Source of the DNA: a virus
Taxonomy: Duplodnaviria > Caudoviricetes
Strand: one strand, 5' to 3'
DNA length: 56,382 nucleotides
IMG/VR virus record: IMGVR_UViG_3300049454_000030
Location: 1-56,382 of that record
Below are positions 1 through 56,382 of this stretch, in pieces. Every line of letters begins with the position of its first letter. Position 1 is the first letter of the stretch. The translations under genes and the position numbers were made by a program. Under the pieces are notes generated by a model. That model did no database searches. It was not told the DNA's origin and was given only the letters and a program-made list of their open reading frames with translations.

Positions 1-26
1 TGGCCATTCGCGTCAGCCGTTCATCG

Positions 27-883: not shown

Positions 884-1475
884 GACCTTCTATACGTCAG
901 ACTTGCACTTTGGTCATGAACGGATCATTGAACTGTGTAACCGGCCATTCGACTCCGTCCAGGAGATGAATGAAGAGTTGATCCGTCGCTGGAACGAGAC
1001 CGTAGGCACGGCTGACACCGTCTACATGCTGGGTGACATTGTTATGGGCAAGCTCGACGATAACCTGCCTTTGGTGAGCCGGCTCAATGGCCTCAAGATG
1101 CTGATTCCAGGCAACCATGATCGCGTGTGGCCGGGATACAACCGCAAGGGAGTCCGGGAACAGGACCTGGAGCGGTACTGGGACGCCGGCTTCTTCATGA
1201 TCCTTGATTCACCGTGGAAGCACCGGAATGGCTGGACTCTGTGTCATTTTCCGGATGTTGGTGACAGTCACGAGGAGGATCGTTTTGCGTCCTGGCGGCC
1301 GTCCACACCCCAAGAGAACGAGATCCTGGTTCATGGTCATGTCCACGAGGAGTGGAAGTTTGACGGGAACCGGGTCAATGTCGGCGTGGACGTGTGGGAC
1401 TTTCGACCAGTTCCCGAGAGGGTTATAGAAGACTGGGCCCGGACGAGGGGGTGGAGTCCATGCACTACTCCATAA
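876..1475 (+). CDS. calcineurin-like metallophosphoesterase
   Basis: SDLHFGH, LGD, GNHD, HGHVH and NVGVD motifs; GGAGG RBS upstream of ATG 876. Confidence 0.9.
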   Translation: MGRTFYTSDLHFGHERIIELCNRPFDSVQEMNEELIRRWNETVGTADTVYMLGDIVMGKLDDNLPLVSRLNGLKMLIPGNHDRVWPGYNRKGVREQDLERYWDAGFFMILDSPWKHRNGWTLCHFPDVGDSHEEDRFASWRPSTPQENEILVHGHVHEEWKFDGNRVNVGVDVWDFRPVPERVIEDWARTRGWSPCTTP

Positions 1476-1731
1476 CGCTGCCGTGGTGGGCCTACGGCCT
1501 GCTCCTGTTCATCTTCTGGTTCTCTGGTGCCACCTGGGGCCATGAAGTGCTCGACGAGTTCTTGGACTGGCTCAAGAAGGACAAAGACAACGAGGACGAT
1601 CTGCAGTAATGGACATGATCTAACTGCTCCGTTAGCCTATGTGCGAGGAACCTTTAGCTGTTACAAGTGCCGAAAGATCCGGTATACTGCAGCTGGCCGT
1701 CGATACCGGGCGCGAAAGAAGGTCGAACGGA

Positions 1732-1962
1732 ATGGTTGACCCGAATCCTGCTCGTGGGATGCCGAAGCAGTTACAGGTTTACTGGATCTCAGGACCTGGA
1801 GGACAGCGAATTGTTTGGCGTACCAAGGGTTCCATGCGCAGGTGCATCACCCTTATGACCGAGCACTTCCCCAAGAACCCGGGCGGAATGTGCGCGATCT
1901 TGCACCACAAAGCTACAGGCGAATGGCCTACGGAGCATGGTAAGGCCGGCATCCCGAGCTGA
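1732..1962 (+). CDS. small protein resembling a Cys/His domain of actinophage head proteins
   Basis: YW..G.GG..I.W...G...RC......GMCA.LHH.ATGEWP pattern. Confidence 0.6.
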   Translation: MVDPNPARGMPKQLQVYWISGPGGQRIVWRTKGSMRRCITLMTEHFPKNPGGMCAILHHKATGEWPTEHGKAGIPS

Positions 1963-2091
1963 GAAAATCATACCAAGCTGAGTCTTGACGCAAGTGGCGA
2001 GGGGCACATGGAGAGGCCTCCTTTCTCCAGTCATCCGGTAGACTGGAGACCAGTCTCATCTACCTCTATCGTTAGCTAAGAGATCATCAAC

Positions 2092-2370
2092 TTGACACAC
2101 TCGCACTCGCGGCTTGGCGAGAAGAACGGAGCCGCTACCATGGACCCCTGGAAGGTTTGCGTCATCCGGTCCATGAGCACCATCCTTGGCCTATCCAACC
2201 AGGAGATCGCCAATCGGTTCCTGATGCCGCGCACGACCATCAGGGACGTAGTTCGGCGTAGGTCCTGGAAGCACATCCCGCCGGCTGGAGGCTTCAGTGA
2301 AGGTGACCTGGAAGCTAGCGTCGTCGGATCCCGTTGTGACGCCAGAATGGGTTCTTCAGCAGGAACGTGA
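2092..2370 (+). CDS. HTH protein resembling the C-terminal DNA-binding domain of phage HNH endonucleases
   Basis: GEKNGAA...QEIANRFLMPRTTIRDVVRRRSW resembles the C-terminus of the 17867 HNH protein. Confidence 0.5.
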   Translation: MTHSHSRLGEKNGAATMDPWKVCVIRSMSTILGLSNQEIANRFLMPRTTIRDVVRRRSWKHIPPAGGFSEGDLEASVVGSRCDARMGSSAGT

Positions 2371-2683
2371 CATAGCAGCCTGTTCCGAGCACGCGTGGGT
2401 GTTGAAGCTATATCATCCCGAAGACGACTGCTACGCTGAACTCACCTGCGAGAAGTGTCCAGCCGGCATGGACGATCTGTACCCCGACGGACACTATCTG
2501 ATGTACCTGGAGCTGGGCGATGTCACCATCGAAGAAGGAAGACACAACTCTCCAGTTCCCCTGACAGTTCCAGTCACCGCTCGCGTAGAGAGCTGGTACA
2601 CCTCAACACCTATCAATGGCGAAGAGTGGCACGTCGAACTTGTCATTGAACCAAGAGGCGAAATCACGTACGGAGAGGCCTAG
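2297..2683 (+). CDS. hypothetical protein
   Basis: 128-aa acidic ORF with Cys/His; RBS-like GGAGG upstream. Confidence 0.55.
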   Translation: MKVTWKLASSDPVVTPEWVLQQERDIAACSEHAWVLKLYHPEDDCYAELTCEKCPAGMDDLYPDGHYLMYLELGDVTIEEGRHNSPVPLTVPVTARVESWYTSTPINGEEWHVELVIEPRGEITYGEA

Positions 2684-2688
2684 ACTGC

Positions 2689-3021
2689 ATGGCTCTGGAT
2701 CCCGATTACAAAGACTTCATCTTGACCATTGCCAAGGTGGCTGAAGCCCGGGGCAGTACAGTCAAGGATCAGCTTCTTGGTCTCATGAAAGAACTGGGAG
2801 AGGCCATTGAGGCCTACGAGCTTTGTACCGGAACACATTACCGGAAGCCACAGGCTGGTACCGTAAAAGATGTTGGAGCTGAACTGGGGGACGTTGTCTC
2901 TTCGGCCCTGGTTTGCATGGCCTACCTGGGCCTGGACCTAGACGAGACGCTCCAGCGAGAAGTAAGCAAAGTGAAGAGTAGATTCCCCGACGTATGGGAG
3001 ATGCGCAATGGAACGGCGTAG
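2689..3021 (+). CDS. MazG-like nucleotide pyrophosphohydrolase
   Basis: LMKELGEAIEA...AELGDV all-helical dNTPase motifs. Confidence 0.8.
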   Translation: MALDPDYKDFILTIAKVAEARGSTVKDQLLGLMKELGEAIEAYELCTGTHYRKPQAGTVKDVGAELGDVVSSALVCMAYLGLDLDETLQREVSKVKSRFPDVWEMRNGTA

Positions 3022-3364
3022 AGTCTTGTCCGTGACATCGGCTGACTGTCAGTTGCAGACGTTCACTTCAGGTGGTCCGGGAGGGCAGCACCAAAACCGG
3101 TCGCAAACTGGAGTCCGTTGAATACATCCGCTCTCCGGCGCCCGGGGGGAAGCGCGAGATGAACGCAGCCAGTTGACTAATAAGAAACTTGCCTGGCGCC
3201 GCATGTACGAGTCCAAGGAGTTTCAGCTGTGGTTGCGACGGACTCTAGGTCAGAACGCTGCAGCAGAAGCTGAGTTGAGTCGCTACCCGATTCCTGACCA
3301 TGAGATCCTGATCGAGGTGCGGAGCCAGGGACGTTGGATCAGGGCCGACAGTTTCACAGCGTAA
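3008..3364 (+). CDS. RF-1 domain (GGQ) peptidyl-tRNA hydrolase / release-factor homolog with in-frame TGA at codon 38
   Basis: TFTSGGPGGQHQNRSQTGVR*IHPLSGARGEARDERSQLTNKKLAWRRM; TGA at 3119-3121; frame otherwise intact. Confidence 0.8.
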
Positions 3365-3530
3365 ACTGGCCAGCCTCCACTCCCTTGAGAAAGGCATCCC
3401 ACTCGTCCATTGTGCATAGGACGGTGACGTCAGGTTGCGTAGAGTTGCGGATGCTCATTCCACGATTGGTCATTTGAACTTCAACGCAGGCGCCACTATC
3501 GCAGTACCAGCTCTTGACCCATGTCGACAT
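3354..3530 (-). CDS. DUF397 (BldB/AbaA-like) protein
   Basis: WVKSWYCDSGACVEV...IRNST.P...EWDAFLKGVEAGQF. Confidence 0.85.
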   Translation of the reverse strand: MSTWVKSWYCDSGACVEVQMTNRGMSIRNSTQPDVTVLCTMDEWDAFLKGVEAGQFTL

Positions 3531-3546
3531 CTCCATGGGGGACAGT

Positions 3547-3726
3547 CTACGCTGCATGGTAGTAGCTCTGGTCCATAGGGCCGAGGAAGGTGTTCCACTC
3601 GTCCGTCGTGAACGAGACAATGGTATTGGGCTGTGTGGAATTGCGAATGTTTACGACTCCGTTAATCCTTTGAACTTCCAGACAGGCGTTACTCTCACAG
3701 TAGTTGCTCTTGGTCCATGTCGACAT
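3547..3726 (-). CDS. DUF397 (BldB/AbaA-like) protein
   Basis: WTKSNYCESNACLEV...IRNST.P...FTTDEWNTFL. Confidence 0.85.
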   Translation of the reverse strand: MSTWTKSNYCESNACLEVQRINGVVNIRNSTQPNTIVSFTTDEWNTFLGPMDQSYYHAA

Positions 3727-3741
3727 CTCCATGTTGACAGT

Positions 3742-4014
3742 CTACGCTGCACTGCGCGCCCGAGCCCGGTTAGCTTCCACACAAACTTTGCATCGACATG
3801 AGTAATTGGTGTAGCCGCTAATTCCGTGAGATATGTTGGTGACTTCGTGCTCGAAGCCAGTAGCACGGATCTGGTCACGGGAGGCACGCCAGTATTCACG
3901 GGACTCATATTGTCGGTCCGTGTTGGCCTGTCGACAGATGTTACAGCGACAACGGTAGTTAGTGTATCCACTGTAGCCATGGGTAAAGCTGCTGGACTTG
4001 GTCTTAGGTGGCAC
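3742..4014 (-). CDS. small Zn-binding protein with two HG..GY.NY.CRC..C repeats
   Basis: duplicated HGxSGYTNYxCRCxxC motif. Confidence 0.65.
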   Translation of the reverse strand: MPPKTKSSSFTHGYSGYTNYRCRCNICRQANTDRQYESREYWRASRDQIRATGFEHEVTNISHGISGYTNYSCRCKVCVEANRARARSAA

Positions 4015-4285
4015 TGATATTGGCTCCGGTCCGTAAGGCTCTGATGCGGTCGATTACCCGAGGGTAACGTATGACGAATGCTTTCTTCAACTCGTAGCCA
4101 TATTGTCCTGGAAGCATCTCAAAGTCCGATGCCATACAGATGCCACATCGAACGTCACGTACCTGTATTTCAAAAGTGCAAGCGGCTGGTGCGTCGCACG
4201 TGTAGCACACCGTCCAGACGTTGGGGCCGTGGTCAGTTTCAATGTACTTTCGGCCAGTGCTGTATGTGTACTCGTCGCCAACGGC
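4004..4285 (-). CDS. hypothetical Zn-ribbon protein
   Basis: two CxxC pairs; start position uncertain. Confidence 0.45.
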   Translation of the reverse strand, partial: AVGDEYTYSTGRKYIETDHGPNVWTVCYTCDAPAACTFEIQVRDVRCGICMASDFEMLPGQYGYELKKAFVIRYPRVIDRIRALRTGANISAT

Positions 4286-7454: not shown

Positions 7455-8210
7455 TCAGAAAGGCGGGTCTTGGTTCTGTGGCCATGCGCCACGCTGCTGC
7501 TCCTGAGCAACACGGTTGTCCTGCTGCCGGCGCATGCGCTGCAACACATTGATCTCATCATCGGTCAGTTGAGCTGAACCTTGGACGGCAGCGTAGCCCT
7601 GTCCCTGATTACCCTGAGGCTGCTGCTCCTGGTGCCGTTGATTCTGGTAGCCCTGATCCTGTTGTCCGTAGCCCTGGCCCTGGTTGGAGCCTTGGTTCGA
7701 GTAACCCTGGGCATTTTGATTGTTGCCTTGTTGCTGGTTACCTTGTTGCTGGTTGACTGGCATCTGTTGCTGGTCATCACGAACATTGAACGGGCTCGGC
7801 CGGAAAGTCGGGTTGGCCTGTCCCCAGGCGGTTGCCCGATCCTTCGCTCCCTGATTTTCAAGAAGGTCGATCACGTTCCACGGGGCGTTCATGCCTGGCT
7901 TGCCTACGCCCTTGCCGATGGTGCCTAACACCTTGCGCCCGATCATGGGACGTAAGTTGCCGATAATGGCGCCCATCCAGTTGCAGGTACGGTACACCTT
8001 GCCAGGTGCACCCGACTCGTCCTTGTCATCCAGGTCGACAACATCAACCTGGATAGCATCCGAGAGTTTTCCAGGGACCGTGAACTTGGTCTGGACGAAC
8101 GGGATGTGCCCGAGCACGTAGATTACGAGAAGGTGTCCCTCCAGCTGGCGAGGCTGGACATATTCGCCACCCATCGGGGCAGCTTGGCCCCAGTCATCTT
8201 CAAAGCTCAT
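7455..8210 (-). CDS. probable ssDNA-binding protein
   Basis: beta-rich N-terminal domain, Q/N/G-rich linker, SSB-like DPPF C-terminus; next to exonuclease and primase. Confidence 0.6.
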   Translation of the reverse strand: MSFEDDWGQAAPMGGEYVQPRQLEGHLLVIYVLGHIPFVQTKFTVPGKLSDAIQVDVVDLDDKDESGAPGKVYRTCNWMGAIIGNLRPMIGRKVLGTIGKGVGKPGMNAPWNVIDLLENQGAKDRATAWGQANPTFRPSPFNVRDDQQQMPVNQQQGNQQQGNNQNAQGYSNQGSNQGQGYGQQDQGYQNQRHQEQQPQGNQGQGYAAVQGSAQLTDDEINVLQRMRRQQDNRVAQEQQRGAWPQNQDPPF

Positions 8211-38793: not shown

Positions 38794-38832
38794 GACGTGA
38801 TCCCTTCCAGCCTCGTAGCCCCTATGACTACG

Positions 38833-38862
38833 AGGTTAGGCTTAGGATACCGAGGTTGTCAA
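38833..38862 (-). promoter_or_regulatory. sigma70/HrdB-type promoter
   Basis: TTGACA-18-TAACCT. Confidence 0.6.
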
Positions 38863-39221
38863 GAGGTACTTGACGGAATCTTGTGTTCTCGGAAGATGTC
38901 GCTGTGCTCCCGTAGCCAGCACTGGAGCCGCATGTACTCTTGAACCTCGAACTCACGGGATGTTTGCCTGGCCGATTTCACGTAGGTGCGACGCTTGTGG
39001 GGTCTGACCATCCTGGCCTCATACCTGCGTTCCGGGTGCGGAGCCAGGGTCGGCGTGCCTACTCGCCCAAGTGTTCGCCGACTACTGGAGCTACGGATGT
39101 ACTCGGGACGGATGACCTGGTTCACGTAGACACAGAGTTCGCCTGGCGCCTGCAGGCACTTGGGGCAGGCGACCGCTAGGGCCTCTTCCAGGCTGACGGG
39201 TTGTAGGCGACGTGAGTACAT
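38859..39221 (-). CDS. Zn-binding hypothetical protein
   Basis: AVACPKC.QAPGELC...HPER; leaderless TACTAT-6-ATG. Confidence 0.6.
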   Translation of the reverse strand: MYSRRLQPVSLEEALAVACPKCLQAPGELCVYVNQVIRPEYIRSSSSRRTLGRVGTPTLAPHPERRYEARMVRPHKRRTYVKSARQTSREFEVQEYMRLQCWLREHSDIFREHKIPSSTS

Positions 39222-39261
39222 GGAGGCATAGTACATCCGCTAGGCCGATATGATGTTGCCC

Positions 39262-39450
39262 ATGACTGCAGAGGACACACGCATGGTGCCAATGGCACCT
39301 ATGTTCGACGTTACCAATATGTCGTTTGATGAGCTGATTGCCTCCGGGGATCTGAATCTTGCCGCCACTATCAAGCGCCTAACGGAGTCCCTATCCGATC
39401 CCGACGGGATCATCTCAGCGTTCCAGTCCCTTGTTTCCGATAAGGATTAG
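39262..39450 (+). CDS. FxSxx-COOH (FxsA-like) RiPP precursor homolog
   Basis: DVTNMSFDELIASGD..LA.TIKRL..SL.DPDGIISAFQSLV; TATGAT -10 just upstream. Confidence 0.75.
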   Translation: MTAEDTRMVPMAPMFDVTNMSFDELIASGDLNLAATIKRLTESLSDPDGIISAFQSLVSDKD

Positions 39451-39457
39451 ATCAGCA

Positions 39458-39488
39458 AAGGGCCCCAGAGGTTTCCCCCTGGGGCCTT
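39458..39488. terminator. terminator hairpin between convergent genes
   Basis: GGCCCCAG...CTGGGGCC. Confidence 0.65.
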
Positions 39489-39516
39489 CCGGTAACTTGG
39501 CGGCTCCCTGATGCCG

Positions 39517-41082
39517 TCAGTTTACCTGCTCCCATGGCCAAGAGCCGCTGCCGCCAACTCCCCGCTCCAGGAGCGGGATGAGCTGGAAGCTGGCATCCGT
39601 CAGCCCACCGAATGTGTACCGGTTGGCTACGCCTGGCGTGTGACCATACTTGTACCCAGCGAGATCCCAAACATATAGCGGAATGTTAGCCGGGATAACG
39701 GCACCCGGGTCTCCGTCGTAGGACTGTTCGTCAGTCACCAGGACCACGCGATCGTGTCCCTTGTAGAAGGCCCGAGTTGCGGCAGCTGTGTACGTGCCAC
39801 CCATGTTCCGGAACTTTTCGACCAGCTTGAGTAGCGACTCGTTGCGACCGACAGGAACTTCAGCTGAGCCGGTGCCGAACTGGACCAAGGTGGCACGACC
39901 ATAGTTCCGTAGAGCCAGTGCCCCGCCGAACACAGCTGCCGCATCCGCCCGGGTCAGTTCCGTAGAACCAGCAATCGCGTCGAACATGGAGCCGGACCGG
40001 TCCACCAGGATCAAGGTGCGACCTGACAGTTCCGGAACATTACTGACGGACAGGTTCAGCGCCTGCTCCAGTGGATAGGCCCACTGCAGCGACTGAGCCG
40101 TGGCCCGGTGCGCCGATAGGAATCGGAACGGGAACTGACGAGACCTGGCCACCTGCTCCGGATCCGTCAACTTGTCAACGACGAACTGACGGGTGGCGTT
40201 GTCAATTCCGACCTCGGTGAAGTTACGCAGGTTCCGGAGGCATGCCATATATCCCATGTTCGGGATCATGGCCTCCCACAACTTTGCCTTGTTCACCTTG
40301 TTGCCAGCCAGGGACAGTGCGTCTTCCCAGGTGAACCCAGCCTCCTTGACGTTGTGCCAGTTCAGTAGAGCCTCAGGACGTTCCGCCGCTGCCTTACGGA
40401 GCCGAGCGTTGTTGCGGATCATAGTGAGTAGTTCGCCTGGTTCCTCATCGCGACCATGCCGACGGGCCAGGGCGAATCGGAACAAGTCCGACTGCCACGG
40501 AGCCTTAGCGTCCGGGTGCGTCAGGTCGAGCACGTCGGCGAAGCGGACACCGTGGGATCCGGTGTCGTACTTGAGCAAGGTGAACTCGGTGTATAGGCGC
40601 TGGGCCGCGTCGGCAATGCCCCGCTTGACCGGCTTCGGAATCGTGCGGCCATACGTTGACATCCAGTAAGCCAGTGCCTCACCAGGCTCATCGGCCCGCT
40701 GCAGGACGCTGTCCACAATCGCCCGGCCCCCCGGGACACCCGCTTCGACCATGGCCTTGGCTGCTTCGAGGCCACCCACGACGGATGCTGTGCGCATGTT
40801 GGCCGTGCTACGCAGCCAGCCGAGCAGCCTCGCCGTCCACACCGAATCCTGGACAGCGGCTTCACGGATCAGCGCCCGGTACCGCGCATCCCGGCTCAGA
40901 CCATCCTCGTGGAACGTCTTTTCACCAACCATGTTGGTGACCGCGAGAAGGAACAGTTCGCCCTTGACGTCACGGGCAAAGCCGGGTGCGCCCAGGGCGG
41001 TGCGTCCACTGGCCCGGGTGTCGGTGACGATGAAAGCTTTAGCTGGCGCCGCCTTTGCGGCCCGCGTGTTGAAACGAGACAC
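39517..41082 (-). CDS. rsr: Ro60/Rsr TROVE-vWA RNA-binding protein
   Basis: ELFLLAV...TFHE, QRADEPGE, MGYMACLRNLRNF, SRQFPFRFLSA, LVDRSGSM MIDAS, GGT, VTDEQ. Confidence 0.92.
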   Translation of the reverse strand: MSRFNTRAAKAAPAKAFIVTDTRASGRTALGAPGFARDVKGELFLLAVTNMVGEKTFHEDGLSRDARYRALIREAAVQDSVWTARLLGWLRSTANMRTASVVGGLEAAKAMVEAGVPGGRAIVDSVLQRADEPGEALAYWMSTYGRTIPKPVKRGIADAAQRLYTEFTLLKYDTGSHGVRFADVLDLTHPDAKAPWQSDLFRFALARRHGRDEEPGELLTMIRNNARLRKAAAERPEALLNWHNVKEAGFTWEDALSLAGNKVNKAKLWEAMIPNMGYMACLRNLRNFTEVGIDNATRQFVVDKLTDPEQVARSRQFPFRFLSAHRATAQSLQWAYPLEQALNLSVSNVPELSGRTLILVDRSGSMFDAIAGSTELTRADAAAVFGGALALRNYGRATLVQFGTGSAEVPVGRNESLLKLVEKFRNMGGTYTAAATRAFYKGHDRVVLVTDEQSYDGDPGAVIPANIPLYVWDLAGYKYGHTPGVANRYTFGGLTDASFQLIPLLERGVGGSGSWPWEQVN

Positions 41083-46319: not shown

Positions 46320-47043
46320 CAACGAAGCCGAAGATTCCATCTACCGGGCAGCCAAAGAGGGTCTGCGGCGATGGCTGGGACGGGCGCGCGACGTGGTCAT
46401 GACGCCCTGGAAACAGTTCAAAGCCCAACCGAATCCGGGGGCAATCGCTTCCACGGTTCCACTGTGGCAGGCCCAGGTCGACCGGATTTTGGCCGCGTTG
46501 ACGCCGGCCCTGAAGGAGGGGTGGGCAGCCGCCCATCTTCCCGGTGACTATGACCCGACTGACCCCTACATCCAGGCAAATCTGGCCTTGACCTATAACC
46601 TTCTAGTCCGGGTTCCAGACGACGTGCACGCCAAAGTGGTCAAGGAGATCCTCGAAGGCACCAATGCCGGCGAGAGCACTGGTCAGATTGCCCAGCGAAT
46701 CGATAATGTTCTGACGTATACCGGGTCAGAAAACTGGGATGGACGGGCGCGTCTGATTAGCCGTACCGAGGGGGCTCGCCACTTCAACAGCTCTCAATTG
46801 GCTCATGCACTTCTCCAGGAGAAGAATGGTGCAGTCGGCATGACAAAACAGTGGGACACAGTCATGGATGGCAAGGAGCGGCTCGCGCATCAAGTTGCGA
46901 ACAATCAGGTCCAACCGATCAACCAACCATTTATAGTAGATGGCGAGCAGTTAATGTTCCCCCTGGACCCGGTTGGCTCCCCGGAGAATGTAATTTCTTG
47001 TCGTTGTTCGATGAACTTCGATAGAGTGCGGGAGGCGCTGTAA
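46312..47043 (+). CDS. MuF-like head morphogenesis protein
   Basis: RARLISRTE, KQW.T..DG.ER.AH...Q...PF.V.GE.L.FP.DP...ENVI.CRC. Confidence 0.9.
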   Translation: MPSNEAEDSIYRAAKEGLRRWLGRARDVVMTPWKQFKAQPNPGAIASTVPLWQAQVDRILAALTPALKEGWAAAHLPGDYDPTDPYIQANLALTYNLLVRVPDDVHAKVVKEILEGTNAGESTGQIAQRIDNVLTYTGSENWDGRARLISRTEGARHFNSSQLAHALLQEKNGAVGMTKQWDTVMDGKERLAHQVANNQVQPINQPFIVDGEQLMFPLDPVGSPENVISCRCSMNFDRVREAL

Positions 47044-49943
47044 TGGCCGTAAGGTTCAAGGGCCTTCTGGCCCCTACGGAGGTTCCTACCGGCGACGGTA
47101 GGATGTTCGCGGATGGCAAGTTAACCAGCCGGCCGATGCCCCTGCCTCTGATGGTCCGGTTCGGCTCCGGCGGCCACGACGGTGCCACAGTCGTGGGCAA
47201 GGTGAACCGGATCTTCCCCGGCCCAGGCGGTTACTGGGGTGAAGGTGAGTTCCTGGACCCGGCCATGGTGCCCGAGGTCCCGAAGGCCATCTACATGCTC
47301 AACGAGCACGTCATGGGACCCTCGGTCGACCTGGACCGGGACTTCACGGTAGAGGCCATCAAGCATCCATTACGCCCCGACAAGAAGGCTGGACTCTTCA
47401 AAGAGTACAACGTCATCGGCGTGACCTTGGTCCCGATGCCCGCCTTCCATCAGGTGCACATGAGCGTGGACTCCGACGAAGACAAGGCCCTGGTGGCTTC
47501 AGTCATGCCAGATCTGGACATGTCCAGTTGGGTCATGTTCGACGTCAACGGGGACTCGTGGAAGTCCTGGCCGATTGCCCCACGCGACTACCGCTTTGAC
47601 GCAGATGATGCGGTCAAGCGGATCGCCCTTTGGTCCGGTATCGGATCCGAGAAGCCAAACCTCGGTGCCTATGCTTCTGCGTTCCTATGGCGCAATGGGA
47701 ACCAGACTGGTGACTCTCTGGCCCAGGACTCGTTCCGTCTGCCGCTGGCGGACGTCATCAACGGCCAACTCTACTTGATCTATCACGCGGCCTATGCGGC
47801 AGCTGCCCTCTTATCCGGCGCCCATGGCGGTTTGCCGAACATCCCGGATCAGGACAAGTCAGCCATGATCCCAGTCCTGTCCGAAATCTACGCTGCCCTG
47901 GGTCAGGCCTTCAATGATCCGAATCTGGTGTCACCTTTTGAACAGGATGTTCGTCGACAGCAGGCAGCTATCGATAATGCGGAAGACTGCGGCTGTGATG
48001 GGCAGTTCAATGCCTACGGTGGCGAACACAACGGGGCAATGATCGCGCTGAAGCCTAGGAAGGCGGATGCGGTCCGACTAGCCGCCATTGGCGATGAAGA
48101 TGTGGACGAACTTCATTGCACGCTGTATTACCTTGGCGACGCCGACGAGTTCGACGAATCGAAGCGTGAGTCTGTCATCAGGGCTGTTAGGCATGCCTTC
48201 ACGGACATCTCCCCCGTTCGGGCGGACGGGTTCTCGGTCAACGTTTTCAATCCTCTTGGCGCGCAGCAGTCTGATGGCAAGGATCGGGATACCTGCATCG
48301 TCCTGGGTATCTCCGGACCAGCCATTGCCGAGGCGAAGAGAGCGGCAGATCTGGCCGTTGGGCTCACTGATGCTGACCATGAGGACCAGCATGAACCCTA
48401 CGTTGCCCATGTGACGCTGGCTTATACCAACGACTTGTCAAAGATCCCAGATCTTACTAGAGCCGCTGGTCCGATCACCTTTGACCGGGTGTGCGTGGCG
48501 TTCGGCGGTGAAGTCATTGAGATTCCACTCAAGGGCGCTCCTGAGTCCGAATACGCCGCTGTCCCCATGCCACCAGCTGACGTGGTCAAGAGTATGGACG
48601 AGGAGGATGAAGCCTATGGTCCCGACGGCGAACATGTCCTTGTCAATGGCATCTGTCAGATGTGTGGTTACTCAATGCAGGAAGGTGCAGAACCCGTGTC
48701 CAACGTGAATATCTATGTGGGGGATGGGGTGCCCATCTCCACAATCAACAGCTCCAACGCGACTGATTACGCTGCAGCGAAAAAGCAGCCATACGGCGAC
48801 GTCAAGTACGCAGATTCCGGAATGCAGGCGGATGGCGTCAAGCGTTATCCACTTGATTCGGAGGAGCATTGCCGCGCGGCTTGGGCATACATCAATATGC
48901 CTAAGAACGCAGCTAAGTACACCCCGGAACAATTGAAAATCGTCAAGGACAACATCAGGGAAGCCCTCAAGAAGTATGGGGTGCAGGTTGCGAAAGACTC
49001 CGGTCAAATGGGCGTTGATAATCTTTCGCCATCAGACGATGCCGCATCGCTGCTTGCCTCGGTTGCGCCCTTGGCACCACCGGCCATTTGGTTCTCGAAC
49101 CCTGCATTGCCGGGGCCGACGCCCCTGACCATTGACGATAGTGGCCACGTTTTTGGCCACCTGGCTCAATGGAAGGTGTGCCACGTTGGTATCGGCAGGT
49201 CCTGCGTCATGGCCCCGAAGACCCGAACCAATTACCAGCTGTTCCGGGTGGGGACCGTTCAGGCCGATGACGGATCCTCGGTTCCCATTGGCAAGATCAC
49301 ATTGGGCACCGGCCATGCCGACGCTCATTGGGGCATTGTTCCTAGCCGCGAACACTACGACAATACCGGTTGGGCGGCAGCTGTCGTCAATGTCGGTGAG
49401 GATAAGTTTGGCATCTGGGTCAATGGGTCTTTGACCACGACCATGACCCCGGAACGCATCGCCGAGCTTCGTGCCGCCTCATTGTCCGGCGACTGGCGCG
49501 AGGTCAACGGAAACCTGGAACTGATCGCGGCACTGGCCGTCAACAGTCCCGGCTTCCCCATCTATCGAGAACAGAATGGCCGCTCCTTCAGCCTCCAGGC
49601 AGTTGGCGTCATCGGCCAGGAGGAGGAGTACGTGGACGAGGAACACCGGCACAGCACCGAGTTCGCCAACCAGGAAGAAGTCGACGGCGAAGTTGTCGGA
49701 GACGAGGAGATCGCCGACGAGGACCTGGTCCTGTCCGCTGCCGCCGAGCGCCTTGCCTCTATTGACGAGGAGTGGGACGAGTTCAACCAGGACCGTCGCG
49801 CTTCTCAACTGGCCGTAATCGACGAGGAACGTGCTGCGTTGGCCGAGTCTAAGATTCCGGCTGGCGCGCATGCGGCCACGAACCTGGACGATGAGATCTT
49901 CGTTCAGTACAACGCACGCTTCCAGGCGCTACAGCAGGAGTAA
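47043..49943 (+). CDS. capsid maturation protease / multidomain head protein with inserted 2H phosphoesterase
   Basis: N-terminal TGDGR, GGHDGA.VVG, GVTLVPMPAF; HCTL/HVTL pair; PYGDVKYAD...RYPLD domain; C-terminal GHLA.W.CH...SGDWR...LAVNSPGFP. Confidence 0.85.
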   Translation: MAVRFKGLLAPTEVPTGDGRMFADGKLTSRPMPLPLMVRFGSGGHDGATVVGKVNRIFPGPGGYWGEGEFLDPAMVPEVPKAIYMLNEHVMGPSVDLDRDFTVEAIKHPLRPDKKAGLFKEYNVIGVTLVPMPAFHQVHMSVDSDEDKALVASVMPDLDMSSWVMFDVNGDSWKSWPIAPRDYRFDADDAVKRIALWSGIGSEKPNLGAYASAFLWRNGNQTGDSLAQDSFRLPLADVINGQLYLIYHAAYAAAALLSGAHGGLPNIPDQDKSAMIPVLSEIYAALGQAFNDPNLVSPFEQDVRRQQAAIDNAEDCGCDGQFNAYGGEHNGAMIALKPRKADAVRLAAIGDEDVDELHCTLYYLGDADEFDESKRESVIRAVRHAFTDISPVRADGFSVNVFNPLGAQQSDGKDRDTCIVLGISGPAIAEAKRAADLAVGLTDADHEDQHEPYVAHVTLAYTNDLSKIPDLTRAAGPITFDRVCVAFGGEVIEIPLKGAPESEYAAVPMPPADVVKSMDEEDEAYGPDGEHVLVNGICQMCGYSMQEGAEPVSNVNIYVGDGVPISTINSSNATDYAAAKKQPYGDVKYADSGMQADGVKRYPLDSEEHCRAAWAYINMPKNAAKYTPEQLKIVKDNIREALKKYGVQVAKDSGQMGVDNLSPSDDAASLLASVAPLAPPAIWFSNPALPGPTPLTIDDSGHVFGHLAQWKVCHVGIGRSCVMAPKTRTNYQLFRVGTVQADDGSSVPIGKITLGTGHADAHWGIVPSREHYDNTGWAAAVVNVGEDKFGIWVNGSLTTTMTPERIAELRAASLSGDWREVNGNLELIAALAVNSPGFPIYREQNGRSFSLQAVGVIGQEEEYVDEEHRHSTEFANQEEVDGEVVGDEEIADEDLVLSAAAERLASIDEEWDEFNQDRRASQLAVIDEERAALAESKIPAGAHAATNLDDEIFVQYNARFQALQQE

Positions 49944-49952
49944 GGGACTTTG

Positions 49953-52900
49953 GTGGCGATCGACCTTAGTGCGTGGAAGCCGGACCTGCACCCTCGTGAC
50001 TCAAAGGGACGGTTCCGTGATAAATGGTCCCTGGGACCTAAGGCTAGGGCCTTTGTAGACAAGGTCCTAGCCAGCTTCAGCCCGCGTACCTTCAAGGACG
50101 ATGCCGCAGTCTCCACGCATCTGGACTCTATCAAGAAGCCTCGTAGCAAAAAGCAGCAAGACGCAATTGACCTTTTCTACACCCGTGACGGTAACGAAAA
50201 TATCCAGTCGACACTGCGTGCGAATGATGATGACACTCCCGTTATTCGTGAACTACGTAGCTCATTTCAGCCCGCTCCGGACGACATGATCATAAGTCGG
50301 GTCTTTGGACCCGACGCCTTTGGTCTACCGCCAGAACGTATCGGTGAAGTTGAAGAGTGGACTCAGCAAAAGGTCCTGGACGGAGGATTTTTCCCTGGCA
50401 ATGTCGGTACACCGCATGCCGTTGCTGGCCCACATATCGAAGCCAGGATTCTCATACCCAAGGGCACACCGATCCTGGTTCGAGGTGGCGGCACCCGTGA
50501 TGTGGCCCTGGACCCCGACCAGCCAGTCCAGTTAGGCAAGTTCACTAGCGACGGTCGGGGCGGTTTCTATACCACAGGGGTAGTGACTCCCAAAAGTGGC
50601 ACAGGTACGCCGCCACGGGCACTGGGTCGTGAGCTTCGACCACAGGACAAGTCGCCAGCTATTGAGCCAACGCCCGATGAACTTGCCCGTCGTGGCCTGA
50701 ACGCGGAGGGTAATCCGCTACCTGAAGGCGGGCAGGCCCCAGGCGCCGCACCGGAGACCCAAGCTCCAGCGGCACCACCCATTGCACCTGAGGTGGGTGC
50801 TCCTGCAGCACCTGCAGGTCCAGTCAAGACTGCCGGTCAACAGCTCCAAGAGGCCGGCGCCGAAGTTCCTGTCGGTGCCGGCAAGGTGGTTGGCCCCGAC
50901 GTTGAGGTAGCACCTCGGGGCAAGATCGAACCTCGCAAGTCGATTCAGGTCATGCCCGAAGAAAAGGCTCGCCAGGCAGAAGTTGACCGTCGCGAGAAGC
51001 GTATCGCCGAGGCTGAAAAGCAGCTTGAGGCTCGTCAACAGCGGCTGGAAACACTACGAGCTGAAACTGACAAGCGTCAAGCGGACGTCAGCGTTCAACA
51101 GTCCCGGCAGATTGAGCAACAACAACAGCTCATTGACCGGCTGATGCGAATGACCCCGGCGCAGCGACGGGAAGAGATTGGTCGCCAGCAAGAGGAAGCT
51201 ATCCGCCGGGACACTCGGGCTGTTGGTGGTCGCAGGCCCCGTGAAGGGCGACTGCTTCAGAATCCGGAGCCGCCAGCCACGACGCCAGAAGAAGAAGTCG
51301 CTGCCGCCAGAGCCCAGGAGGCCGCACTTAAGGAGAGGACTCCAGAAGCCGCCAAGAAAGCGGCCAAGGCGGCTCGTGAGCGTGTCATTGCTCAAGAGAG
51401 CCAACCAGCTGGGTCCATGGAACGAGCCCGTGTCGAACGGGAACGTGTCGCCGGTGAACGGCAAGCTGCCACGCGCCGTGAAGATGTCGCCAACTTCCGT
51501 GACCAAAACCAGGACCAGTTGCTTCCACGGCAACGGCGCCAGGTCGGCAACCTCAATGAGGCAGACTCCGACACATACTGGACCCGTCGATCAGAGGGCC
51601 AGCCCCATGCTCGTGCCATCAAGGGCCTTGACTACCTGACCACGGGACGCACGGGCCCCTTGGCGGGTGACCGTGGCGCTGGACGCGTCACGCCAGAACA
51701 GCGCCGGGATGTCGACAATCTGGATGCAAACGCGCTGGAGATTTACCGGGCTCGCCGGGCCGAGGGTGCCGATCACCGGATCGCGCTCCGGGAAGCTCAC
51801 CAGTCCCAGCTTCCCAGCACCCGAACCACGGCAAAGAGGGCCCCACGTAAGGTCGCCGTAGGTCCCAACGGCGAAGAGCTTGTGGGTGGTATCGCCATTC
51901 CACGGGCTACGGAACGTCGCCACAAGCAGCCACGCGAAGACGTCATGGCGCACATCGCCAGTCTTGACAAGGAGCAGAAGTCCAGGCTCAAGAAGAATCT
52001 GGACAAGATGCGGGGCGCGAAGAGCGAAGAGGACCTGGTCCGTTCGCTGAAGAAGATCGATGAGGACGACCTCTTTGACTTGACCAACTCAGCTGGTGTC
52101 GCGAACAGTGAGCCGGGCGTGGATGCCCAGGACAAGAACGATTACATTGGTCGCCTGGTCCGGATCTGGCAGGACAAGATCAAGGGCAAGTCTCCTGCGA
52201 CCCGTGGCCAGGAACAGTCACGCCTCACTCGGCCGGCGCGAACAGGCCCGAGCATCCCCGAGCGGGGAGGCTCAACCGGGGCCAGAGCCTTTATGCGACG
52301 AGAGGAGGGCAACCTCAGTCCTGAGCAATCAGCTGAACTGAATGCCCTGTCGTCAACGGAGCGGGTGGATTACTGGGCACGTAGGGCCGACGGCGCCAGT
52401 CACGCGGAGGCAATGCCTTCTGCCACGAAGGCCAAGACGTTCATCGGGAACGTGCCATCGACGCATGGCAACGCTAACCCACAGCCGGAACCAGCCAAGG
52501 CGGCCAAGAAAGTTACGCCAACGGTCCCGGTCAAGAAAACGGCACCTGTTCGCGAACGCCCACCAACACTAACGTCTCTACGGACGCAAGCCAGGGAGCA
52601 GAAGGTCCCTGGCTACTCACGTATGGACAGGGGTCAGCTACAGAGCGCCTTGGATGCTAGGAAGCGGCGCGAAGGCGAAACGACTGAGGCGCATGTAGCC
52701 CGGGTTGCGGAACTGAATGCACCTCGCAAGGTCACCAAGAAGGCTGCGCCTGCCGCCAAAGCCGTATCAACCGAAAAACTGGCGCCGACGAAAGCGGTTA
52801 CAACCGCCCAGAAGGTGGCTGGGTCCAGAAAGTCTCGTGTTGAGGCGCCTGAGAATTATGACCGGTTCCCAGTGCCGGACAGCAAGGCATCCTGGGGCAC

Positions 52901-55900
52901 AAAGTTCCCTGGCTACAAGGCAAACAAGTTCACGGCCGACGTCGTTAAGGAGAACGACGAAACATTACGTCCTCCAGGCAATACGGACCCGACCAGGTAT
53001 TGGGCTGATCCACCAAACGTCAAAGACGTCAAGCGACCATTCCGCAGCTATGAAGGCCCAGTTAAGCTAGACGGCCAGGGGCGTCCACAGAACCCGTACA
53101 CCCGTACTGGCGTTCAGGATCGCGGTGAGCTGGGCAAGTGGGGAGCCAACTTCGCTGGCGATTCGATCGTTACACGAGTAGACCCTGACACTGGCCGCCT
53201 GCAAATGCTGACCATCCGTCGCAAAGATGGTCAGCCCGCAATTCCTGGCGGGATGGTCGACTTCAATGAAGATATCTGGAAGACGCGTCGCCGGGAGCTG
53301 AAAGAAGAAACCGGCGTCGATCTCGACATGGCCGACTCAAGGGAAGTTTACAAAGGTTATGTCGATGATCCACGCAACACTGACAACGCATGGATGGAAA
53401 CATCCGTTGGCCATAAGCACCTGACCCCTGAGCAGGCCGCTGCCACTGGCAAATTTAAGCCAGAAAGCAACGAGGAGATCAAGGGCGTCTACTGGGCTGA
53501 CGTTGACCCAGAAATGATAGATGGCCTGTTCGCCAGCCACGGTGACTTCGTCGCGATGATGGCCGAACAGATGCTTTCCGACAAAAGTTTGTCACCTGCC
53601 GAGCGTCGACGTCTTCGAGGAACACTGGAAACTCGGGCGACCAAGAAGGCTGTTGCCCCAAAGAAGAAGGTCCTACCAAAAGCTGCCGTTAAGGCACTGC
53701 CGGACCAACCGGAACGGCCGCTGGCGCCGAAGAAGGTCGGCAAGGCCGCCGTCCCAGCCAAGAAGGTGTCCGAGCGTGGGCAACGGATCCGGGACCTACG
53801 CGAGCGGGCACGGGCTGACCTCCGGGAGCAAGGATTCGACAATCCCTCCCAGGAGATGCTCGACGAGCACATGGCGGCATTGGCTCGCAATGACCATCAG
53901 ACAAGGGATCGACTACGGACAGGTGGCGTCGACCGCCATACAGTAAAGAAGACAGCTCCCGTCGCCAAGAAAGCTGCCCCGGCCGTAGGCCATGACATCT
54001 TGGACGAAAAGGATGTCGGTTCCACGATCGCCAGGAACAACGTCAAGGATGCTCGCCGGGACCTAGCTCGTGGTGATTCTCTCGCCGATGTTGCTGACAC
54101 TCTGCGCGGACAGGCAGACAGCCTCCGCGACGGTGATCCGCTTACTGAGTCAGACATGCCGGATCGAATTCACCACAGCGACGAGGACCTTCGTGACATT
54201 GCCCTAGCTGACGCCCGCAACCTGCACAGGATGGCCGACGAGCTGGAGAAGGTTGCAGCCAAGAAGGCTGCGCCAGCCAAGAAGGTCACCAAGAAAGCCA
54301 CGCCGACCAAGGCTCAGCTAGAACGGTCCGCGATTCCAGACGCTGACGCGCAGGAAATGCTCCGTAAGGCGAAGACGGTCGCCGACCTCAATGAGATTGC
54401 CAAGCACTACGGTGTCCGGATCCCATCGACTGCTGGCCGGCGCGAAGAGCGTCGGAACTTCCTGATTAGTCAGCTGCTACGGCGCCGAGGCGAAAGTCCT
54501 GCCGAGTACCGGGACCGAATCGAAGGTCTCAAGGAAACGCGACCGGCCAGGGTGTCGCCGGCCAAGCGGATAGTGCGCGGAGCCAAGGCTCCCGAGGCCC
54601 GGCCAATGCGAGCAGAGGCTTTGACGACGGGACCGGAGCCAGATGCCCGAGTCAGACCCAACGGCAAGATTCCGTTGAGCAAGCTCCGCAAGGGTGACAA
54701 GGTTCTGGTTGAGAAGGACCGCAATGGTCGATGGGTGCCAGCGACCCGTAAAACAGGAGCCACCACAGTCACGGTTGACCGGGTGTACGGTATCCAGGAG
54801 AACGGTGGATTCCGGCGCACTACAACCCGTAAAGCGCTTAGCGGTCACGATAACAATGGCAACGAGATCAACGTTGGCACTGAGGCAATCGTCGGTGGCC
54901 AAATTAAGGGCTATCCAGGTCACCAGACATTCATATTTGTGCCAGAAGGAAAGGCTCCAGCGAAGAAGACAGCGGCTGCCGCAAAGAAGGCGACGCCTGC
55001 AGTCAAGAAGGCCGCCGTCGCAAAGAAGACAGCCCCATTCGCAGTGGGTGAGCCGGTCAACGCACAGGACCGTGGTCGCCTTGATGCCGTTGACGCTGCC
55101 ACCGCTCGCAAGAAGGTGGAAGCTAGGGCACAGGAGCTGTTTGGTCCGGAGCGTACCCGAGGTCAGGCCTGGAAGCAGGCTCTGGACGAACACGAGACCA
55201 GTCAGGTTGCACAACGACTACGAGCAGTGAAGACAGAGGAAGAAGCAATCACGCTTCTTGCCGGCGATAAGACACTAACTGCGTACAAGCTGAAGAAGAT
55301 TGCCGACGAACTGGGCATCGATGTTCCGGAAAGTGTCAAGGCTAAGACCTCGCTCCAGCTGCATATCGCTGAGAAGGTAGCACCAGCCAAGAAGACGGCT
55401 CCTAGCCTCTCCTCGCTAAGGAAAGAGGCAAAGGATCTAAGGGTTCCGGATCACACAGTCAAGACCCGCGCGGAGCTTGAAAGAGATATTCCACAGCGGC
55501 GCATCTGGAACGAGCTGAGTGGTGAACCGAACAAGCAACATGAAATCTTAAGACTTGAGGGTGACCAAAGAGAACGCTACTACGACCAGAGACTGGCCGG
55601 AGAATCTCACGAGGCGGCTGTCTCCAGCGCAAAGGAAATTCCAACAGGTCTAGCTCCCACTAAAACAGGCCGAAGAACGGACCAGATAGCTGCACGTAAG
55701 CGTCTTAGCGAAGAACGAGCGGCCGAGAAGCTAGCCACCAAGAAGGCTACCCCCAATACCCGTAGGCTTCGGGATCAATTTGACAAAACGTTAGTTGAAG
55801 GCGTCAAGGAAGAAGTCGTCAAGCAGGTCGAAGAAGATCACGCTGGCGAAACACCGACACAGCGCGCTGCCCGTGTTAAAAAGCGTCTAGCTGAAATCGA

Positions 55901-56382
55901 CGCCGCATCTGCCGCCAAGGCCACGCCGGCCAAGCCAAAGATCACGAGAGCCGCGAAGCAATCCTGGCAAGATGTCAACGGTGGCCTTGGCGAGAAGGGC
56001 CTGTCCGCTGACCAAATTGAACAACGGATTCTCGACGGACGTTTGACTGGTACAGACATTGATGCCATCACCCAGGAACGTGGACTTGCGCTTCCGAAGC
56101 GTGGCACCGTCGCCCAGCGCCGTCGGGCCTTAGCTGAAGGCATTGTCAGTGTTGGCGGTCCCAAAGTTGCGCCAGTCAAGAAGGTCGCCGCCGTTAAAAC
56201 GGCGTCTGTGCCGAAGAAGGCGTTGCCTGGCTACCGTGACACTGGTGAAGTTGTGCCAGAAGCTGACCGAGCTGGTCTACACGTCACCACTCAACGTTGG
56301 GGCGACTACGGCGTTTATGACAGCAAGCAGCATCGAGTGGAAGCTGATCACAAGACTGAGGCTGCCGCACAACGCCGCGTTC
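49953..56382 (+). CDS. giant multidomain virion-associated protein (truncated by window edge): degenerate VIP2/ART-like, HeH-like and NUDT9-like ADP-ribose pyrophosphatase domains
   Basis: starts W.PDLHPRDSKGRF; spot checks at 52830 and 56340 are in the same frame; the ORF track lists no stop-terminated ORF in this frame. Confidence 0.8.
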   Translation, partial: MAIDLSAWKPDLHPRDSKGRFRDKWSLGPKARAFVDKVLASFSPRTFKDDAAVSTHLDSIKKPRSKKQQDAIDLFYTRDGNENIQSTLRANDDDTPVIRELRSSFQPAPDDMIISRVFGPDAFGLPPERIGEVEEWTQQKVLDGGFFPGNVGTPHAVAGPHIEARILIPKGTPILVRGGGTRDVALDPDQPVQLGKFTSDGRGGFYTTGVVTPKSGTGTPPRALGRELRPQDKSPAIEPTPDELARRGLNAEGNPLPEGGQAPGAAPETQAPAAPPIAPEVGAPAAPAGPVKTAGQQLQEAGAEVPVGAGKVVGPDVEVAPRGKIEPRKSIQVMPEEKARQAEVDRREKRIAEAEKQLEARQQRLETLRAETDKRQADVSVQQSRQIEQQQQLIDRLMRMTPAQRREEIGRQQEEAIRRDTRAVGGRRPREGRLLQNPEPPATTPEEEVAAARAQEAALKERTPEAAKKAAKAARERVIAQESQPAGSMERARVERERVAGERQAATRREDVANFRDQNQDQLLPRQRRQVGNLNEADSDTYWTRRSEGQPHARAIKGLDYLTTGRTGPLAGDRGAGRVTPEQRRDVDNLDANALEIYRARRAEGADHRIALREAHQSQLPSTRTTAKRAPRKVAVGPNGEELVGGIAIPRATERRHKQPREDVMAHIASLDKEQKSRLKKNLDKMRGAKSEEDLVRSLKKIDEDDLFDLTNSAGVANSEPGVDAQDKNDYIGRLVRIWQDKIKGKSPATRGQEQSRLTRPARTGPSIPERGGSTGARAFMRREEGNLSPEQSAELNALSSTERVDYWARRADGASHAEAMPSATKAKTFIGNVPSTHGNANPQPEPAKAAKKVTPTVPVKKTAPVRERPPTLTSLRTQAREQKVPGYSRMDRGQLQSALDARKRREGETTEAHVARVAELNAPRKVTKKAAPAAKAVSTEKLAPTKAVTTAQKVAGSRKSRVEAPENYDRFPVPDSKASWGTKFPGYKANKFTADVVKENDETLRPPGNTDPTRYWADPPNVKDVKRPFRSYEGPVKLDGQGRPQNPYTRTGVQDRGELGKWGANFAGDSIVTRVDPDTGRLQMLTIRRKDGQPAIPGGMVDFNEDIWKTRRRELKEETGVDLDMADSREVYKGYVDDPRNTDNAWMETSVGHKHLTPEQAAATGKFKPESNEEIKGVYWADVDPEMIDGLFASHGDFVAMMAEQMLSDKSLSPAERRRLRGTLETRATKKAVAPKKKVLPKAAVKALPDQPERPLAPKKVGKAAVPAKKVSERGQRIRDLRERARADLREQGFDNPSQEMLDEHMAALARNDHQTRDRLRTGGVDRHTVKKTAPVAKKAAPAVGHDILDEKDVGSTIARNNVKDARRDLARGDSLADVADTLRGQADSLRDGDPLTESDMPDRIHHSDEDLRDIALADARNLHRMADELEKVAAKKAAPAKKVTKKATPTKAQLERSAIPDADAQEMLRKAKTVADLNEIAKHYGVRIPSTAGRREERRNFLISQLLRRRGESPAEYRDRIEGLKETRPARVSPAKRIVRGAKAPEARPMRAEALTTGPEPDARVRPNGKIPLSKLRKGDKVLVEKDRNGRWVPATRKTGATTVTVDRVYGIQENGGFRRTTTRKALSGHDNNGNEINVGTEAIVGGQIKGYPGHQTFIFVPEGKAPAKKTAAAAKKATPAVKKAAVAKKTAPFAVGEPVNAQDRGRLDAVDAATARKKVEARAQELFGPERTRGQAWKQALDEHETSQVAQRLRAVKTEEEAITLLAGDKTLTAYKLKKIADELGIDVPESVKAKTSLQLHIAEKVAPAKKTAPSLSSLRKEAKDLRVPDHTVKTRAELERDIPQRRIWNELSGEPNKQHEILRLEGDQRERYYDQRLAGESHEAAVSSAKEIPTGLAPTKTGRRTDQIAARKRLSEERAAEKLATKKATPNTRRLRDQFDKTLVEGVKEEVVKQVEEDHAGETPTQRAARVKKRLAEIDAASAAKATPAKPKITRAAKQSWQDVNGGLGEKGLSADQIEQRILDGRLTGTDIDAITQERGLALPKRGTVAQRRRALAEGIVSVGGPKVAPVKKVAAVKTASVPKKALPGYRDTGEVVPEADRAGLHVTTQRWGDYGVYDSKQHRVEADHKTEAAAQRRV

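Follow-up and report, generated by a model that had tools for sequence, protein, structure and literature searches.

A short plus-strand gene at positions 39250..39450 of a phage genome raises the question of why a virus would keep a homologue of fxsA, which encodes the small ribosomal precursor of a cross-linked peptide, apart from the maturase gene that accompanies fxsA in bacteria. The window analysed here is the whole IMG/VR record IMGVR_UViG_3300049454_000030, a linear sequence of 56,382 bp that CheckV rates as ~95% complete, with ~5% possibly missing. A first-pass annotation, made from the letters of the window, had described the peptide as an orphan FxsA-type precursor with a blocked C-terminus and had suggested that it serves as a decoy or mimic.

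An actinophage genome rich in tRNA genes

Phage genes found in the window, which has a GC content of 57.5%, encode a portal, head-morphogenesis proteins, a large terminase, a primase, an exonuclease and two ParB-like proteins. The top matches of the portal among GenBank phages come from phages of Actinoplanes, Arthrobacter and Gordonia at ~30% identity, indicating an actinophage without close cultured relatives. Neither megablast of positions 38800-39600 nor tblastn of three peptides (those of the window, L023 and L033) gave a credible match in 50,697 GenBank phage records. The sole sequencing run that contains the window DNA is a soil metagenome (DNA), possibly its source, and no RNA runs are listed for it.

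ARAGORN found 39 tRNA genes, 33 of them above the Rfam gathering score. They lie between 13333 and 36714, on the minus strand throughout, and every one of the 20 amino acids is represented; for a 56-kb phage at 57.5% GC the set is unusual in both density and completeness. No tyrosine or serine integrase was found in the window, and because an integrase is absent the phage is probably virulent. The missing integrase and the 39 tRNA genes together make a role in lysogenic conversion less likely. As for the host, the sequence points weakly to the Micromonosporaceae, given the Actinoplanes-phage portal match and the distribution of the peptide's subfamily described below, which is biased by the search pattern.

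A lone plus-strand gene with two candidate starts

The peptide gene is the sole plus-strand gene inside a minus-strand block, 2.5 kb beyond the 39-tRNA region, and its neighbours encode a zinc-finger protein, a phrog_2319 protein and a TROVE protein. Its frame holds in-frame ATG codons at 39250, 39253, 39262 and 39283 and closes with a TAG stop at 39448-39450, so that the peptide measures 66 aa if started at the first ATG, 62 aa at 39262 and 55 aa at 39283. The gene call draws on the open frame itself, on codon-position GC (0.52/0.39/0.66, as in the long genes of the window), and on the homologues and profile match described in the next section.

Two signals recognised by eye bear on where translation begins. 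The hexamer TATGAT at 39249..39254 (+), a -10-like element of the TANNNT type, lies 7 nt ahead of the ATG at 39262 and would imply a leaderless mRNA starting from that codon. The Shine-Dalgarno-like GAGGA at 39271..39275 (+) lies 7 nt ahead of the ATG at 39283, the alternative start of the 55-aa form. Judged from these elements, either 39262 (leaderless) or 39283 (with a Shine-Dalgarno sequence) could be the real start; the block shared with the family begins only at residue 15 of the 66-aa form.

Upstream, the divergent neighbour at 38859..39236 (-) encodes a phage zinc-finger DNA-binding protein (PF24623, 36.3 bits), and only 13-25 bp separate the start of that gene from the possible starts of the peptide. 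Downstream, the convergent neighbour at 39517..41082 (-) encodes a TROVE/Ro60-like RNA-binding protein with a vWA domain (PF05731, 82 bits; phrog_850), on which the Rsr model scored 42 bits, far under its cut-off. Rfam found tRNAs only in the window, and a Y-RNA-like match beside the TROVE gene was absent.

Between the two convergent genes lies a GC-rich hairpin of 10 + 2 pairs at 39459..39488, in a 76-nt fold of -34.4 kcal/mol with a z of -2.72; it is possibly a bidirectional terminator. The gene had been credited with a promoter and terminator of its own, a description that was not confirmed. The consensus scan detected no sigma-70-like promoter for the peptide ORF, and it called no terminator there because a T run is missing from the hairpin.

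The peptide is a homologue of FxsA

Taken as a statement about identity alone, we consider it very probable that the window peptide is an orphan FxsA homologue. An acidic leader is followed by ...DPDGIISAFQS..., and residues 15-63, APMFDVTNMSFDELIASGDLNLAATIKRLTESLSDPDGIISAFQSLVS (39292..39438, +), align with the FxsA family across a leader-like part and the DPDG-IISAF-x-S core. The F-x-S motif itself, F58-Q59-S60, is encoded at 39421..39429 (+).

Pfam and PHROGs had no match for the peptide, and a word-indexed protein homologue search recovered the window's own protein alone. Exhaustive phmmer against 1.84 billion representatives returned 31 non-self matches at E<=1e-3, with a best E of 1.5e-7. 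Most of these (26/31) are peptides of 51-105 aa that align with query residues ~13-64 through to their own C-termini. The remaining five matches are long proteins of 919-2291 aa; the four that were checked are Ig-, TPR-, PKD- and HAMP-repeat proteins and were judged spurious, P0011 being the fifth. The relatives share P-L-x-D-V, a helical-looking L...R-L stretch and ...DPDG(V/I)ISAF(Q/G/S)S(F/Y)... with the window peptide.

In an alignment of 27 sequences that includes the motif, G53 and F58 are invariant and D20, P51, S56, A57 and S60 near-invariant, with S60 kept in at least 90% of the sequences; the window peptide keeps every one of these residues. Two of the aligned relatives are labelled 'FXSXX-COOH protein' by their source, and the NCBIfam model TIGR04268 matches 20 of the 27 at E<=1, the best at 1.1e-8. 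The window peptide is unusual in carrying Ser at the first Asp of DDPDG.

A match to TIGR04268 had been named as a way of checking the assignment, and its absence as grounds for refuting it; the window peptide gave no match at E<=10, either in an hmmscan of the peptide or in a six-frame search of the window. The check turned out to be unsound. The cut-off of this model, 28 bits, was passed in only three of five bacterial genomes that bear fxs loci: the FxsB-adjacent peptide of locus L035 reached 23.4 bits and the genome of locus L038 had no match. Viral relatives scored 17.6-22.7 bits. Since genomes with fxs loci are themselves partly missed, the missing match reflects a problem of sensitivity. 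A profile built from 15 distinct FxsB-adjacent bacterial peptides, with viral sequences excluded, gave the window ORF 64.5 bits and an E of 6e-19 among 2285 six-frame ORFs, and the next best window ORF had an E of 3.7. With 26 small homologues, the TIGR04268 matches among them and this profile score, the reading of the gene as an FxsA-type precursor is borne out, and by alignment the peptide belongs to the Micromonosporaceae-type DPDGxISAF subfamily of FxsA.

These results also bear on whether the frame is open merely by chance, the real coding sequence, if there is one, being the minus-strand ORF at 39240..39413. The minus-strand orientation of all neighbours and the lack of matches to curated families would suit such a reading. 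It is nevertheless almost certainly wrong, given the gulf between the first and second profile matches, the phmmer E-values found in so large a set of proteins, and a codon-position GC that fits the plus frame and not the minus frame. As far as sequence evidence reaches, the match to the FxsB-adjacent profile refutes it. The minus-strand ORF was rejected on its off-pattern codon-position GC (0.40/0.53/0.67) and on the homology of the plus frame.

The closest bacterial relatives sit beside FxsB in fxs loci

To place the peptide among bacterial genes, one genome per species was scanned with the pattern DPDG[IV]ISAF and a 10-sequence alignment. The scan yielded 18 loci, all from Micromonosporaceae-type actinomycetes or MAGs, a bias that is partly built into the search. 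They come from Dactylosporangium, Hamadaea, Catellatospora, Actinoplanes, Asanoa, Phytohabitans, Allorhizocola, one unclassified actinomycete and two MAGs, and the tblastn identity of the window peptide to them is 39-57%. An FxsB match follows the peptide directly in 18 of 18 loci and starts within ~100 bp of it; 17 of these matches are 325-430 aa long, and that of L039 is 88 aa. An Fxs TPR protein match is present in 17 of the 18, which upholds the earlier statement that FxsA normally lies beside FxsB and TPR/NTPase genes. All four loci examined with NCBIfam gave 451-456 bits for FxsB (cut-off 370) and 731-885 bits for FxSxx_TPR.

The loci that hold the closest relatives encode STAND proteins with NB-ARC and TPR parts, whose N-termini carry EAD2 and VMAP-M0 or else a ParA/KGGVGR-type ATPase. 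An immune-type nature of Fxs loci, which the first-pass annotation had seen as implied by its decoy idea, is now also predicted in a 2026 preprint (10.64898/2026.10.19.760177). In the parts of that preprint dealing with these loci, FxsC (an active TIR protein) and FxsT (a ParA protein with an inactive TIR) are combined into predicted 'TIR-ParA apoptosis systems' of the cell-suicide type, and FxsAB is proposed to add a modified peptide that would be antiviral or a diffusible alert. The same parts term TIR-ParA systems functionally uncharacterised and leave phage-borne FxsA unmentioned. Phage defence by Fxs loci is a prediction made in one preprint (10.64898/2026.10.19.760177).

Three of the bacterial loci have features of their own. 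The FxsB-adjacent peptide of Allorhizocola (L038, ~8001-8156, +) ends in a duplicated motif, ...AFQNYAFQNLAS, and is missed by TIGR04268. 'Actinomycetes bacterium KLBMP 9797' has a second FxsA copy in L039, the locus with the 88-aa FxsB match, which has no TPR match and is possibly decayed. A Dactylosporangium fxs locus (L033) is adjoined by a gene for a 1067-aa fusion of UvrD helicase and PD-(D/E)XK nuclease (902-4105, -), which fits a defence-island-like setting.

Set against the precursors of triceptide FxsA loci (TIGR04268, with the MscB-type radical SAM/SPASM cyclophane synthase FxsB as TIGR04269 and FxSxx_TPR as NF040586), the window peptide shares the length class, recognition by the FxsB-adjacent profile, the acidic N-terminus, the P-L-x-D-V...L...R-L block, DPDG-(V/I)-I-S-A-F-x-S and a short tail. 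It differs in being viral, in lying below detection by the curated model and in standing without an FxsB, TPR/STAND, TIR or ParA gene. Two residues also set it apart, a Leu in place of the aromatic residue after F-x-S and the Ser in DDPDG noted above.

The SDKD end is ordinary for the family

The first-pass annotation took FxsA to end at FxSxx and the SDKD end of the window peptide to be an extra, blocking tail. The tail LVSDKD (39430..39447, +) is indeed present and places six residues after F-x-S. Among the 15 distinct FxsB-adjacent bacterial peptides, the number of residues in this position is 3-9, most commonly three and in no case exactly two. The rule that FxsA ends at FxSxx therefore fails for the closest relatives, and since all 15 lack the two-residue F-x-S-x-x-COOH spacing, as the window peptide does, this spacing does not discriminate within the subfamily. 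Nor is the SDKD end exceptional, as a metagenomic relative (P0028) ends in ...FGSFISDKD and three other family members (P0015, P0019 and P0030) have longer ends still. Comparison with these relatives indicates that the SDKD tail is ordinary family variation, and that there is no C-terminal block.

The chemistry described for this enzyme class points in the same direction. In a review's treatment of MscB, an enzyme of the FxsB family (IPR026335), the cross-link joins Phe C4 to the Ser C-beta within the three-residue motif (PMC11002830); such a cyclisation would show as a change of -2 Da. Because this cross-link sits within F-x-S, the carboxyl end lies outside the chemistry described there, and on this literature F58-Q59-S60 is the predicted FxsB cyclisation site of the window peptide.

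One feature of the tail is less usual. Residue 61 of the window peptide is Leu; Phe or Tyr occupies this position in 13 of the 15 distinct FxsB-adjacent relatives, so that the window peptide lacks a possible second aromatic-x-Ser motif. Together with the Ser at the first Asp of DDPDG, this substitution might make the peptide a poor FxsB substrate. The idea that the tail blocks the C-terminus and turns the peptide into a dead-end, dominant-negative inhibitor of FxsB could draw on this loss and on a six-residue tail that exceeds those of most FxsB-adjacent relatives. We regard it as very unlikely, given the range of tail lengths among FxsB-adjacent peptides, the identical end of P0028, the longer ends of the three other members, and a Phe-ring-to-Ser cross-link that, in the part of the source on this chemistry, spares the carboxyl end (PMC11002830).

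Orphan copies recur in unrelated viral lineages

The peptide had been called an orphan within its phage, and a search for a radical SAM gene or other cognate maturase had been named as the way to overturn that description. None was found, and the description stands for this ~95% complete record. No radical SAM domain (PF04055) was detected in the window at E<=1, and tblastn of the FxsB of L033 against the window gave no match at E<=1e-5; the TPR protein of L033 likewise had no match. No TPR/STAND, TIR or ParA gene of the Fxs type was found near the peptide or elsewhere in the record.

A motif scan of IMG/VR found relatives of the peptide in six further viral records. A scan with the single window peptide had given no match, and it was the alignment-based scan that recovered them. 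They comprise G001 (61.7 kb, 100% complete), G003 (58.7 kb, 94% complete) and its near-twin L025, G004 (132.7 kb with terminal repeats, 100% complete) and two small fragments. A radical SAM gene was found in none of the five records searched, a set that left out the record of L025 and in which three records are 94-100% complete. Comparison of portal proteins makes G003 (47% identical) and the fragment G002 (39%) distantly related to the window phage and G001 and G004 unrelated to it; the fragment G005 had no match. Orphan copies therefore occur in at least three viral lineages with unrelated portals.

G003 carries two tandem, divergent FxsA-like copies (L026, 1184-1363 and 1367-1555, both +), and the same arrangement is found in L025. 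In this 58.7-kb phage the tandem genes stand one stop codon's width apart, with a tRNA-Met gene ~750 bp downstream.

Identity of the window peptide to the other viral peptides (32-44%) does not exceed that to bacterial ones (35-49%), and no bacterial peptide is more than 57% identical to it. The gene has a GC of 0.52; the phage as a whole has 0.575, and bacterial fxsA genes span 0.55-0.70. A phage-like GC and low identity to bacterial peptides suggest long residence in the phage, and the pattern across the viral records speaks for old, probably repeated captures that are probably kept by selection.

This pattern is also an argument against a functionless passenger, a host fxsA captured by chance and now drifting in the phage. 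Such a passenger would be small and isolated, as this gene is on the strand opposite its neighbours, and no close relative of the window phage was found in which conservation of the gene could be seen. A drifting gene would hardly be expected, however, to keep all the family-invariant residues at only 35-57% identity to any relative, to have gene-like codon-position GC and a composition adapted to the phage, or to recur as an orphan across viral lineages. We consider the passenger reading quite improbable.

The adjoining TROVE gene raises another possibility, namely that the peptide acts unmodified and independently of Fxs, for example by binding a phage or host protein such as the TROVE/Ro60-like neighbour, its likeness to FxsA reflecting shared ancestry. 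The two genes are adjacent in the window, and a viral fragment (L028) has a TROVE C-terminus (2-250, +, 44% identical) ~1.1 kb upstream of an FxsA-like gene (~1354-1548, +) on the same strand. The association does not extend further: a relative of the peptide was found in 0 of 21 other viral TROVE loci compared, and the peptide-bearing records G001, G003 and G004 are absent from the list of TROVE loci. The strongest conservation also falls in the DPDG-ISAF-x-S block, the part relevant to the enzyme. A role independent of Fxs is accordingly a highly improbable account of the gene.

A possible surrogate or competitor for host FxsA

The explanation we favour, to which we give about an even chance of being correct, is that the window carries a functional FxsA precursor gene of the Micromonosporaceae subtype in a probably virulent, tRNA-rich actinophage without a maturase, that the peptide acts as a surrogate for or competitor of FxsA on the host Fxs system, and that its SDKD end is ordinary. 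The decoy or mimic idea of the first-pass annotation is thereby kept as plausible from the sequence, without its blocked C-terminus. Several findings count against this explanation: the lack of a match to TIGR04268, Pfam or PHROGs, the lack of a promoter in the consensus scan, the two substitutions that might make the peptide a poor substrate, and the ~5% of the genome that may be missing. In addition, the FxsB cut-off was passed in only 9 of 401 sampled Actinomycetota genomes, and the 57.5% GC of the window is far under the 65-74% of the genomes with the closest FxsA genes. The nine FxsB-positive genomes all measure 6.3-11.5 Mb, which fits large mycelial actinomycetes.

In the proposed mechanism, the peptide would be made from phage DNA after infection. 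It would matter only through host proteins that recognise FxsA and, on the simplest reading, would enter the presumed Fxs pathway of the host. Host FxsB would then cyclise the phage peptide, a component that reads FxsA (such as the TPR sensors) would bind it, or both. As a surrogate or competitor for host FxsA, the phage peptide would keep the predicted abortive-infection or alarm module of the STAND/TIR-ParA type silent. A predicted complex of a Hamadaea-type FxsB with the phage peptide scored 0.29, against a mark of 0.32, a value that speaks neither for nor against the mechanism.

Why a phage might replace the host peptide at all can be approached through host shut-off. If the phage is virulent, its 39 tRNAs and a GC far lower than in its likely hosts would lead one to expect shut-off of host expression, and a phage-made replacement for a labile peptide is then an attractive, if speculative, notion. 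A more specific version holds that the cyclophane made by FxsB, as an endogenous ligand, tells the NB-ARC/TPR and TIR-ParA suicide modules of mycelial actinomycetes that 'all is well', that shut-off depletes this ligand and so sets the modules off, and that several phage lineages encode surrogate FxsA peptides matured by host FxsB. We regard this version as doubtful. If it were true, a ribosomal natural product would be an immune checkpoint, and viral surrogate ligands would be the counter-move.

Comparable logic is known from other phages. Pseudo-ToxI antitoxin RNA and T4 Dmd are phage-encoded mimics of a labile component of a host suicide module, and the logic proposed here is the same in that the phage supplies a copy of a small controlling component encoded by the host. 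Those cases concern toxin-antitoxin RNAs and proteins, whereas the window encodes a ribosomal peptide that would need a host radical SAM enzyme, and control of this kind in Fxs loci is hypothetical. The arbitrium peptide AimP is likewise small, phage-encoded and a point of comparison for a possible signalling role. AimP differs from the window peptide on three counts: it carries a signal sequence, it has a phage-encoded receptor, and host immune loci hold no homologue of it.

A signalling role enters the main competing account, in which the phage uses host FxsB to make a cyclophane peptide of its own with a positive function. That function could be to manipulate adjacent hyphal compartments through a diffusible signal, to give a false all-clear or a false alarm, or to keep rival phages out. 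The leader-like block and F-x-S are fully conserved, as would be expected of a competent substrate, and the tandem divergent copies in L026 suit production as well as inhibition. It also fits that the preprint, in its part on FxsAB, proposes a diffusible alert or an antiviral molecule as the possible product (10.64898/2026.10.19.760177). On the other side, none of the genes beside the peptide was recognised as encoding an exporter, protease or receptor. Both this account and counter-defence need host FxsB, and the present evidence separates neither from the other; we judge the production of a phage's own peptide unlikely.

The interest of the surrogate or competitor reading lies in what it would say about the host. 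The chemistry of FxsA and FxsB is known, and the immune role of the Fxs locus has so far been a prediction of comparative genomics. A virus that keeps the substrate gene alone, repeatedly and in unrelated lineages, provides independent evolutionary evidence that the pathway matters in infection. A single peptide of 55-66 aa also offers a simple experimental handle on it. If the peptide is a mimic, RiPP precursors reliant on a host maturase would form a new class among anti-defence genes, and what a widespread actinomycete gene cluster does could be tested directly. No description of a phage-borne FxsA without a maturase was found in a full-text literature search that left most subscription journals outside its scope. 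As far as that literature goes, the peptide family and its chemistry are already known and the phage-borne copy without a maturase is the new part.

Other features of the window

Two further features of the window concern genes far from the peptide. A giant ORF of at least 2144 aa at 49950-56382 (+) is still open at the 3' end of the record, and an ORF open at its 5' end lies at 3-704 (+); the record may be permuted or slightly truncated, with the two ORFs belonging to one gene. Immediately upstream of the giant ORF, a 966-aa protein encoded at 47043-49943 (+) has PHROG matches of the portal/MuF-like and head-protease-like kinds and, at residues 319-498, a segment resembling an RNA ligase.
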